Under the pieces are notes generated by a model, which saw only the letters and a list, made by a program, of their open reading frames with translations, made no database searches and was not told the DNA's origin. From the NCBI GenBank assembly GCA_031269795.1, contig JAISYR010000021.1:3818-67817 (forward strand): 64,000 nucleotides of DNA, written 5' to 3'. Origin of the DNA: Puniceicoccales bacterium. GTDB taxonomy: Bacteria > Verrucomicrobiota > Verrucomicrobiia > Opitutales > JAIRKQ01. The position numbers and the translations under genes are program-made. Shown here piece after piece: positions 63,432 through 64,000 of this stretch; positions within the stretch are counted from its first letter, which is position 1, and each line of letters begins with the position of its first letter.

Positions 63432-64000
63432 ATGAATTTTGAAAAAAAGAAAGAAATTTTCGACAATATCTACCAGGGGATCAACGGTTACAGCATATCT
63501 CACAAGGGTAGGAGCACGATGGATACAAAGGATACAAAATTTTTGATATATGGCGAAGTTTCTTTCACAGAACTATTGGCCATCGTCGAAAATTCTGGGA
63601 TCAAAGATAAGCTTGATGGACTAACAACTTTCTGCGATCTTGGTTCTGGAACGGGCATGTGTCTCATCGGAACTGCCCTGATATGCCCATATTTTAATCG
63701 TATCATCGGCGTGGAGCTAGTCCCAGCTTTGTATGAATCATCGTTGAAAAGTGTGCAGTTGCTGGCTCAAACTAATAAAAAATTGGCCAACAAGATTAAA
63801 GTTATTAACGGAAATTTTTTAAAATTGAATTTTACCAAGCCATCCCTTTCGCCGAATGTAATCTTTATGCACTACCCGATGCACGGAATGGGTGCGGAGG
63901 AATTGTATTTGCAATTGGAAGAAAAGTTTCGGAAGGAACTAAAGTCCGGAAGCATTATAATTTCTGCCATACGGAAATTATCTATCCCGGAAGTTTTTCC
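63432..64000 (+). CDS. Class I SAM-dependent methyltransferase, DOT1-like (runs off the window end)
   Basis: Hand translation: MNFEKKKEIFDNIYQGINGYSISH..FLIYGEVSF..FCDLGSGTG..IIGVEL..INGNFL..VIFM; open to 64000. Confidence 0.85.
   Translation, partial: MNFEKKKEIFDNIYQGINGYSISHKGRSTMDTKDTKFLIYGEVSFTELLAIVENSGIKDKLDGLTTFCDLGSGTGMCLIGTALICPYFNRIIGVELVPALYESSLKSVQLLAQTNKKLANKIKVINGNFLKLNFTKPSLSPNVIFMHYPMHGMGAEELYLQLEEKFRKELKSGSIIISAIRKLSIPEVF

Follow-up and report, generated by a model that had tools for sequence, protein, structure and literature searches.

We report here on a stretch of 64,000 nucleotides from a Puniceicoccales bacterium (assembly GCA_031269795.1, contig JAISYR010000021.1, positions 3,818 to 67,817 of the forward strand), called the window throughout, and on the gene at its very end, which encodes a stand-alone DOT1-like class I methyltransferase dependent on S-adenosylmethionine (SAM). 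An ATG at 63432 opens a frame on the + strand whose 189 codons run without a stop through position 64000, where the window ends. A database search retrieved a protein of 213 aa, P0001, that is 100% identical to this open reading frame (ORF) over all 189 residues; hence, 63432..64000 holds codons 1-189 of 213, and 24 C-terminal residues lie beyond the window end. The identification of the gene draws on the open frame, on P0001, on a match to the Pfam family DOT1 and on an AlphaFold2 model. An initial annotation, made from the letters alone, had correctly recorded that the frame runs off the window and had looked to the adjacent DNA for the C-terminus, which P0001 now supplies. All five motifs that it had quoted are likewise present in the translation of the + strand: FLIYGEVSF (aa 37-45, 63540..63566), FCDLGSGTG (aa 67-75, 63630..63656), IIGVEL (aa 91-96, 63702..63719), INGNFL (aa 125-130, 63804..63821) and VIFM (aa 143-146, 63858..63869).

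The only Pfam family to match above its cut-off is DOT1 (PF08123), which scores 30.6 bits with the partial and 30.2 bits with the full-length protein against a cut-off of 23, whereas the next family, Methyltransf_31, reaches 18 bits against a cut-off of 27. Generic methyltransferase families and Methyltransf_4, GidB, MTS and PCMT gave sub-threshold matches throughout, and the DOT1 match recurs in 25/25 close and intermediate relatives. The DOT1-like family membership proposed by the initial annotation therefore stands, and none of the small-molecule or rRNA methyltransferase families that it had set against DOT1 in a profile comparison scores better. A search of NCBIfam with the window protein gave no meaningful match. 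Homologues were found by database search at E 1e-118 to 1e-15, so that the resemblance goes well beyond coincidence, and the names that the source databases give to these proteins are generic ("class I SAM-dependent methyltransferase", "SAM-dependent methyltransferase", "hypothetical protein").

Searches of structures point in the same direction. A single-sequence search of the Protein Data Bank (PDB) sequences found 9ne1 at E 4.5e-15, and a profile of the family aligned to it at E 1.2e-31, with profile positions 4-205 falling on 9ne1 residues 33-225; the next PDB matches of the profile were aKMT (7e-12), yeast Dot1 (4e-8) and human DOT1L (~1e-6). The AlphaFold2 model (predicted local distance difference test score, pLDDT, 92.8; predicted template modelling score, pTM, 0.90) consists of alternating strands and helices, and its top Foldseek match is again 9ne1 (template modelling, TM, scores 0.80/0.84; root-mean-square deviation 3.0), followed by aKMT, DOT1L and Trypanosoma brucei DOT1A. 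The entry 9ne1 is the crystal structure of a bacterial DOT1L-like methyltransferase; since its RDAIEYVYGE loop matches the description of Legionella pneumophila LpDot1 in a preprint, we take it to be LpDot1. We assign the window protein to the DOT1-fold class I SAM-dependent methyltransferases with high confidence.

An N-methyltransferase for RNA or DNA bases, glutamine or a small molecule, sharing with DOT1 no more than the Rossmann fold, might also produce weak matches of the kind seen with Methyltransf_31, Methyltransf_4 and GidB, and the model does resemble Trm11, the RsmD-like yhhF and METTL5, though only at TM 0.5-0.6. Furthermore, some relatives have a motif IV of the form N-H-P-F, which recalls the NPPF/NPPY of amino-methyltransferases. 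However, all Pfam matches of this type lie below their cut-offs while DOT1 lies above its own, the DOT1-specific YGE loop is invariant, and the match to LpDot1 is at least 20 orders of magnitude better than that to 5bxy (E 4.9e-5), the best-scoring RNA methyltransferase in the list. The window protein itself has H-Y-P-M in place of the (D/N)-P-P-(F/Y/W) motif IV of RNA and amino-group methyltransferases such as RsmD, Trm11, METTL5 and HemK. We thus consider an activity on nucleic acids or small molecules improbable.

The loop that precedes motif I, Y40-G41-E42 (63549..63557, +), is aligned with the same three residues in LpDot1 and yeast Dot1, and is unchanged in 25/25 close relatives (alignment A1) and in all 65 tabulated sequences, which comprise the window protein and 64 relatives. 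In LpDot1, the YGE region is part of the gate loop-EF (bioRxiv 10.64898/2026.01.11.698932). Motif I, D69-L-G-S-G-T-G75 (63636..63656, +), forms the SAM-binding glycine loop (DxGxGxG) and aligns to its counterparts in LpDot1, aKMT and Dot1; D69 and L70-G71-S72-G73-T74-G75 do not vary in alignment A1, and D69-x-G-S-G-T-G75 is invariant family-wide. It is followed by G93-V-E95 (63708..63716, +), of which G93 and E95 are invariant and which falls at strand E90-95 of the model. By analogy with other class I methyltransferases, the acidic E95 at the end of strand beta-2 presumably contacts the ribose of SAM.

Motif IV deviates from the DOT1 pattern. Located by hidden Markov model (HMM) alignment to 9ne1 and yeast Dot1 and by a motif table across lineages, it reads M146-H147-Y148-P149 (63867..63878, +), and His147, within F-M-H-Y-P-M, stands where the HMM alignment places the asparagine of F-I-N-S-S in LpDot1 and of V-N-N-F in yeast Dot1. 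We take the equivalent position in DOT1L to be Asn241, beside the substrate lysine. Among the tabulated sequences, the Legionellales carry asparagine at this position, while bacteria of the candidate phyla radiation (CPR) and some gammaproteobacterial metagenome-assembled genomes (MAGs) have F-T/A-H-S/A-T-C-F, also with histidine; F-M-H-Y-P-M is found in Puniceicoccales and Rickettsiales and is the signature of this subfamily. F129, M146-H147-Y148-P149 and the helix L162-E-x-K...E-L170 are invariant or nearly so within the close subfamily. In the mechanism we envisage, the DxGxGxG loop (D69-G75), the YGE loop and the post-motif-I glutamate E95 would hold SAM; beside the active site, there would be two flexible loops, at about residues 31-40 and 146-156; His147-Tyr148-Pro149 would replace the asparagine-containing motif IV of DOT1L; and the substrate amine, most likely that of a protein lysine, would be methylated there.

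The closest characterized counterpart is LpDot1 (lpp3025; PDB 9ne1). Both proteins are stand-alone DOT1 catalytic cores of about 200 aa, homologous over their full length at 27-30% identity, with the motifs YGE, DxGSGTG and GxE in common, and both are carried by protist-associated bacteria. Our model is least confident at about residues 31-40 and 151-160 (block means 82 and 80). These stretches match the gate loops of LpDot1, for which its authors likewise describe a poor prediction by AlphaFold2 (bioRxiv 10.64898/2026.01.11.698932). The differences are that motif IV is I-N-S-S in LpDot1 but M-H-Y-P in the window protein, that the latter belongs to a separate, Rickettsiales-centred subfamily, and that it lacks the N-terminal hydrophobic segment of the Legionellaceae homologues: within its first 45 aa, the most hydrophobic stretch of 15 residues has a hydropathy of 0.12, as compared to 2.5-3.2 in Legionella, Tatlockia and related homologues. 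This strongly hydrophobic N-terminus of some 20 aa was seen in Legionellaceae and related homologues (L040, L047, L049, L052, L062, L064 and L073); the homologues from Puniceicoccales, Rickettsiales and CPR do not have it. Also, we know of no Dot/Icm system in this organism, unlike in the carrier of LpDot1.

LpDot1 showed no detectable activity on histones from calf thymus, and two elements of DOT1L are missing from it, the nucleosome/ubiquitin-binding loop and the C-terminal helix; its reported substrates are proteins of the nucleus other than histones, notably SFPQ at K518, and it has been reported to be a virulence factor (bioRxiv 10.64898/2026.01.11.698932). The statement of the initial annotation that DOT1-like proteins occur in Legionella is hence confirmed by the literature (PMC10117894; bioRxiv 10.64898/2026.01.11.698932).

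The more specific label in its title, a eukaryote-type histone H3K79 methyltransferase, is not supported. In favour of a genuine nucleosomal enzyme writing the H3K79 mark in a host nucleus, the window protein does share with Dot1/DOT1L the Pfam family PF08123, the SAM-binding motifs, the YGE loop and the core of the fold, its fold matches include DOT1L and T. brucei DOT1A, and the carrier's lineage includes intranuclear symbionts. However, only the catalytic core is present. The family profile aligns to DOT1L residues 135-268 only, the TM score normalized to DOT1L is about 0.44, and identity is about 18-20%. The N-terminal helical domain of DOT1L is absent, as are its nucleosome/ubiquitin-binding loop and its C-terminal helix; the latter two cannot be accommodated in 213 aa, and LpDot1 lacks both as well. 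Only 39 residues precede the YGE in the window protein. Phe131 and Trp305 of DOT1L serve to orient H3K79 (bioRxiv 10.64898/2026.01.11.698932); counting back from the YGE, the position of Phe131 is occupied by Thr35 (Ala72 in LpDot1), and Asn241 is replaced by His147. None of the features of the nucleosomal enzyme, i.e., helical N-terminal domain, binding loop, C-terminal helix and the Phe131/Trp305 pair, was found in the 213-aa protein. Adding that LpDot1 showed no activity on histones, we hold an H3K79-type activity to be very improbable. With its short N-terminus, an alignment to DOT1L limited to 135-268 and Thr35, the window protein is the catalytic core of a DOT1-family enzyme of the LpDot1 type and very probably not a nucleosomal H3K79 methyltransferase.

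Two further proteins deserve comparison. Like the window protein, the crenarchaeal aKMT (Sulfolobus islandicus; PDB 5fa8/5fad) is a small, stand-alone prokaryotic DOT1-like protein lysine methyltransferase, and it is the second-best match both by sequence (E 7e-12) and by fold. It differs in being shorter (about 160 aa) and in having neither the N-terminal helices nor the YGE region that LpDot1 and the window protein have in common. One alternative is that the window enzyme, like aKMT, acts on the cell's own proteins, with nucleoid, ribosomal or envelope proteins as candidates, and that a host is irrelevant to its function; we return to this below. The other is a DOT1-only protein of 218 aa from Hyperionvirus (A0A3G5AC17), with TM 0.72/0.71, 18% identity and a viral carrier. 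Stand-alone DOT1 proteins of giant viruses fall within a protist-associated gene pool (PMC10117894).

Bacterial stand-alone DOT1-like methyltransferases are thus already known, and the window gene is one of them (PMC10117894; bioRxiv 10.64898/2026.01.11.698932). What appears to be new is a previously undescribed subfamily of histidine type in Rickettsiales and in Opitutales/Puniceicoccales of termites. Our literature search turned up neither a publication about the genome of Nucleococcus nor one about DOT1-like genes of termite symbionts.

To see where such genes occur, 185,579 species genomes were surveyed, which yielded 190 relatives; statements on lineages refer to the 80 best of these. Among them, Verrucomicrobiota are represented by termite-gut MAGs only, so that orthologues widespread in free-living Verrucomicrobiota, which the initial annotation had named as evidence against its proposal, were not seen. 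Orthologues with 75-86% identity are found in MAGs named "Puniceicoccales bacterium", and the nearest relatives outside of this group are Rickettsiales MAGs (40-47% identity), several of which come from the same termite samples. These Rickettsiales genes lie on clearly bacterial contigs, one of them a few kb from a TrbI/VirB10 gene. More distant relatives, at 25-33% identity, are found in Legionella, Tatlockia, Coxiellaceae, one Parachlamydiaceae MAG and numerous CPR bacteria, among them Roizmanbacteria and Peribacteria. Overall, the relatives cluster mainly in Rickettsiales, Legionellales, Coxiellaceae and Parachlamydiaceae. An indexed search returned 1,715 proteins at E<=1e-10; most of the small number that carried names were from CPR, Parachlamydiaceae and Rickettsiales.

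In a neighbour-joining tree with bootstrapping, the Puniceicoccales are monophyletic (100%), the clade of MHYP-type Puniceicoccales and Rickettsiales, in which Rickettsiales predominate and the Puniceicoccales genes are nested, is well supported (99%), and the Puniceicoccales group with termite-gut Rickettsiales at 76%. This pattern suggests an ancient exchange of the gene between the carrier's lineage and Rickettsiales symbionts residing in the same guts. A recent transfer was considered and discarded, as no compositional trace of one was found: the GC content at third codon positions (GC3) is 0.455, as compared to 0.46-0.47 in the neighbouring genes, and any transfer must therefore be old. 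The gene is clearly maintained by selection, because the pairwise ratio of nonsynonymous to synonymous substitutions (dN/dS) among seven orthologues is 0.10-0.19, with a dS of 0.4-1.5. Its amino-acid identity of about 85% is like that of the fol enzymes and below that of RecA, LepA and MoxR (94-98%).

Some relatives show unusual arrangements. The termite-gut Rickettsiales MAG Gsp477_bin10 carries two divergent DOT1-like genes (L012, 483..1106, and L031, 1005..1610), one of the MHYP type and the other distant, with the motif IV L-F-C-C-P-N-S. Also, the DOT1-like domain is found in the multi-domain proteins P0071 (480 aa), P0101 (454 aa) and P0157 (3573 aa); one protein of this set is matched in two places, and the longest is a giant.

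With respect to expression of the gene, a Shine-Dalgarno-like AAGGA (63420..63424, +) lies 7 nt 5′ of the ATG and is kept in the alignment of upstream regions. Further upstream, a non-coding block of about 34 nt (63366..63399, +) is near-invariant in six orthologous loci, including two (L005 and L008) with different upstream genes, and it overlaps a weak sigma-70-like match at 63361..63390. Since the block is conserved even where the upstream genes differ, it suggests that the DOT1-like gene carries a promoter or leader of its own, and probably is the promoter or 5′ leader of this gene. In most relatives, a palindrome, TAAAAT-GATTG-ATTTTA, lies within the block; in the window, it is not intact. 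Since the block is single-copy within the window and its 13-mer core is no commoner than expected by chance, the idea that it represents a regulon motif was dropped. A scan for promoters and terminators gave only weak promoter-like matches (9/12) and no terminator, and an Rfam scan of the window found a single tRNA (53643..53713) and nothing near the DOT1-like gene.

The window is dense in housekeeping genes (aminoacyl-tRNA synthetases, RecA, LepA, folE/folP/folB/folK, a MoxR-type AAA ATPase, ribosomal protein S2), with a few orphans lacking a Pfam match among them. The order LepA - small orphan - folK/B/P - folE - MoxR - DOT1-like is kept in four MAG loci, and genes for RNase HII, an HtrA-like protease and an extracytoplasmic function (ECF) sigma factor downstream are common to two further loci; in all, synteny extends over four MAG loci on the upstream side and three on the downstream side. 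The locus of P0002, a protein 86% identical to P0001, served for reading the neighbourhood. While the neighbours here are MoxR and RNase HII, those in Rickettsiales are trigger factor and a radical-SAM (HemN-like) gene, or an M48 peptidase, and the more distant orthologue L008 has yet another gene context. The small orphan between lepA and folK (132 aa, 59130..59528, -), whose position is kept in four related MAG loci, is 71-83% identical across loci and evolves faster than all of its neighbours. One of the orphans to which the initial annotation had alluded, an ORF of 765 aa among the housekeeping genes (10651..12948, +), has no Pfam match at E<=1e-5. Lastly, a stretch of about 2.6 kb (25367..27967) has no ORF of at least 130 aa on either strand and is flanked by two orphans without Pfam matches (23846..25366, 506 aa, and 27968..28567, 199 aa); in a reduced genome, this may reflect erosion or pseudogenization, or else a cluster of small genes.

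Where the carrier lives can be approached from its provenance. The sequencing runs in which a share of the window's words (0.10-0.14) occurs are metagenomes from termite guts. The names of the MAGs contain sample codes, and those that could be looked up are lower-termite samples of Mies et al. 2024; Ncb351 stands for Neotermes cubanus, and Gx481 and Gsp477 are shaped like the Glyptotermes code Gx485. The Opitutales lineages to which these MAGs probably belong were described as confined to lower termites, with genomes below 1.5 Mb and a putatively endosymbiotic lifestyle, and include the endonuclear Ca. Nucleococcus (Mies et al. 2024); the "Nucleococcus cluster" comprises nuclear and cytoplasmic endosymbionts of protists (Williams et al. 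2021). The carrier thus probably lives inside termite-gut flagellates, where it would be intracellular or intranuclear.

Taken together, the gene product would be a complete, functional stand-alone N-methyltransferase of the bacterial LpDot1-like family in a termite-gut 'Puniceicoccales' symbiont whose lineage has been described as endosymbionts of flagellates with reduced genomes. By analogy with LpDot1 and SFPQ, its most likely substrates would be proteins of the flagellate host, and not nucleosomal H3K79. We infer a lysine acceptor, host-protein targets and export from the bacterium. Host targeting is favoured by the skew of the family's distribution towards bacteria that live inside protists, by the apparent exchange of the gene between unrelated symbionts of the same hosts, by its retention in reduced genomes and by the LpDot1 precedent. 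Given this phyletic pattern and lifestyle, an effector role is plausible, and we put forward a host-directed action tentatively, at somewhat below an even chance.

A number of observations weigh against action on the host. The 213-aa protein is essentially the catalytic fold alone, and neither a signal peptide nor a transmembrane segment nor a terminal extension was found in it. The 64-kb window shows no components of type III, IV or VI secretion systems (T3SS, T4SS, T6SS); the only secretion-related gene seen in it is a lone T2SS-F/PilC-like gene (17912..19387, -; T2SS, type II secretion system), beside which the scanned ORFs include neither a secretion ATPase nor a secretin. A search for expression data on the gene found none. 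It lies among housekeeping genes, and no functional neighbourhood is common to it across lineages. The wider family is large: searched exhaustively, it gave 5,535 clusters at E<=1e-3 and 1,413 when the threshold was E<=1e-10. It is abundant in CPR/Patescibacteria, and one distant relative resides on a 4.25-Mb contig from a MAG that bears the name "uncultured delta proteobacterium"; neither of these carriers is known to live inside eukaryotes. The putative link between the MAGs studied here and Ca. Nucleococcus is based on a published statement at the level of lineages. Finally, aKMT methylates the cell's own proteins in Crenarchaeota.

Several of these points would equally fit an enzyme with substrates inside the bacterium: the missing secretion signal, the housekeeping context with a rate of change like that of the fol genes, the rank of aKMT among the matches, and the spread of the family in CPR and onto the 4.25-Mb contig. 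Yet a purely internal role sits less easily with a subfamily that is confined to Rickettsiales and termite Puniceicoccales and looks to have been shared horizontally between unrelated symbionts, with its retention where genomes have been reduced, and with the host-directed action of LpDot1, the closest characterized relative. We thus judge methylation of the bacterium's own proteins to be unlikely on balance, though it is an alternative to be taken seriously.

A bolder version of the host-directed reading, which we regard as speculative and rather unlikely, can be formulated as follows. The carrier would belong to the "Nucleococcus cluster" and live inside the flagellate nucleus, and the histidine-type enzyme would be a nucleomodulin that is released into the nucleoplasm, where it would methylate chromatin-associated or RNA-processing proteins; its gene would stem from a symbiosis pool exchanged among Rickettsiales and Opitutales that have these protists as common hosts.

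To our knowledge, Legionella is so far the only genus in which DOT1-like enzymes of bacteria have been investigated. One such enzyme is reported to rewire host splicing via methylation of SFPQ (bioRxiv 10.64898/2026.01.11.698932). Here, a distinct subfamily with histidine for asparagine in motif IV is fixed under purifying selection in verrucomicrobial and Rickettsiales lineages of lower-termite guts that are thought to be endosymbionts of flagellates, and among the members of one carrier lineage are bacteria that inhabit the nucleus of their host. Should the enzyme act on the host, it would open a concrete molecular way into the manipulation of protists by endosymbionts that cannot be cultivated, and would constitute a second, independent case of DOT1-fold nucleomodulins. 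If, on the other hand, it acts on bacterial proteins, it would point to an unrecognized system of protein methylation that would be common to CPR, Rickettsiales and other bacteria with reduced genomes.

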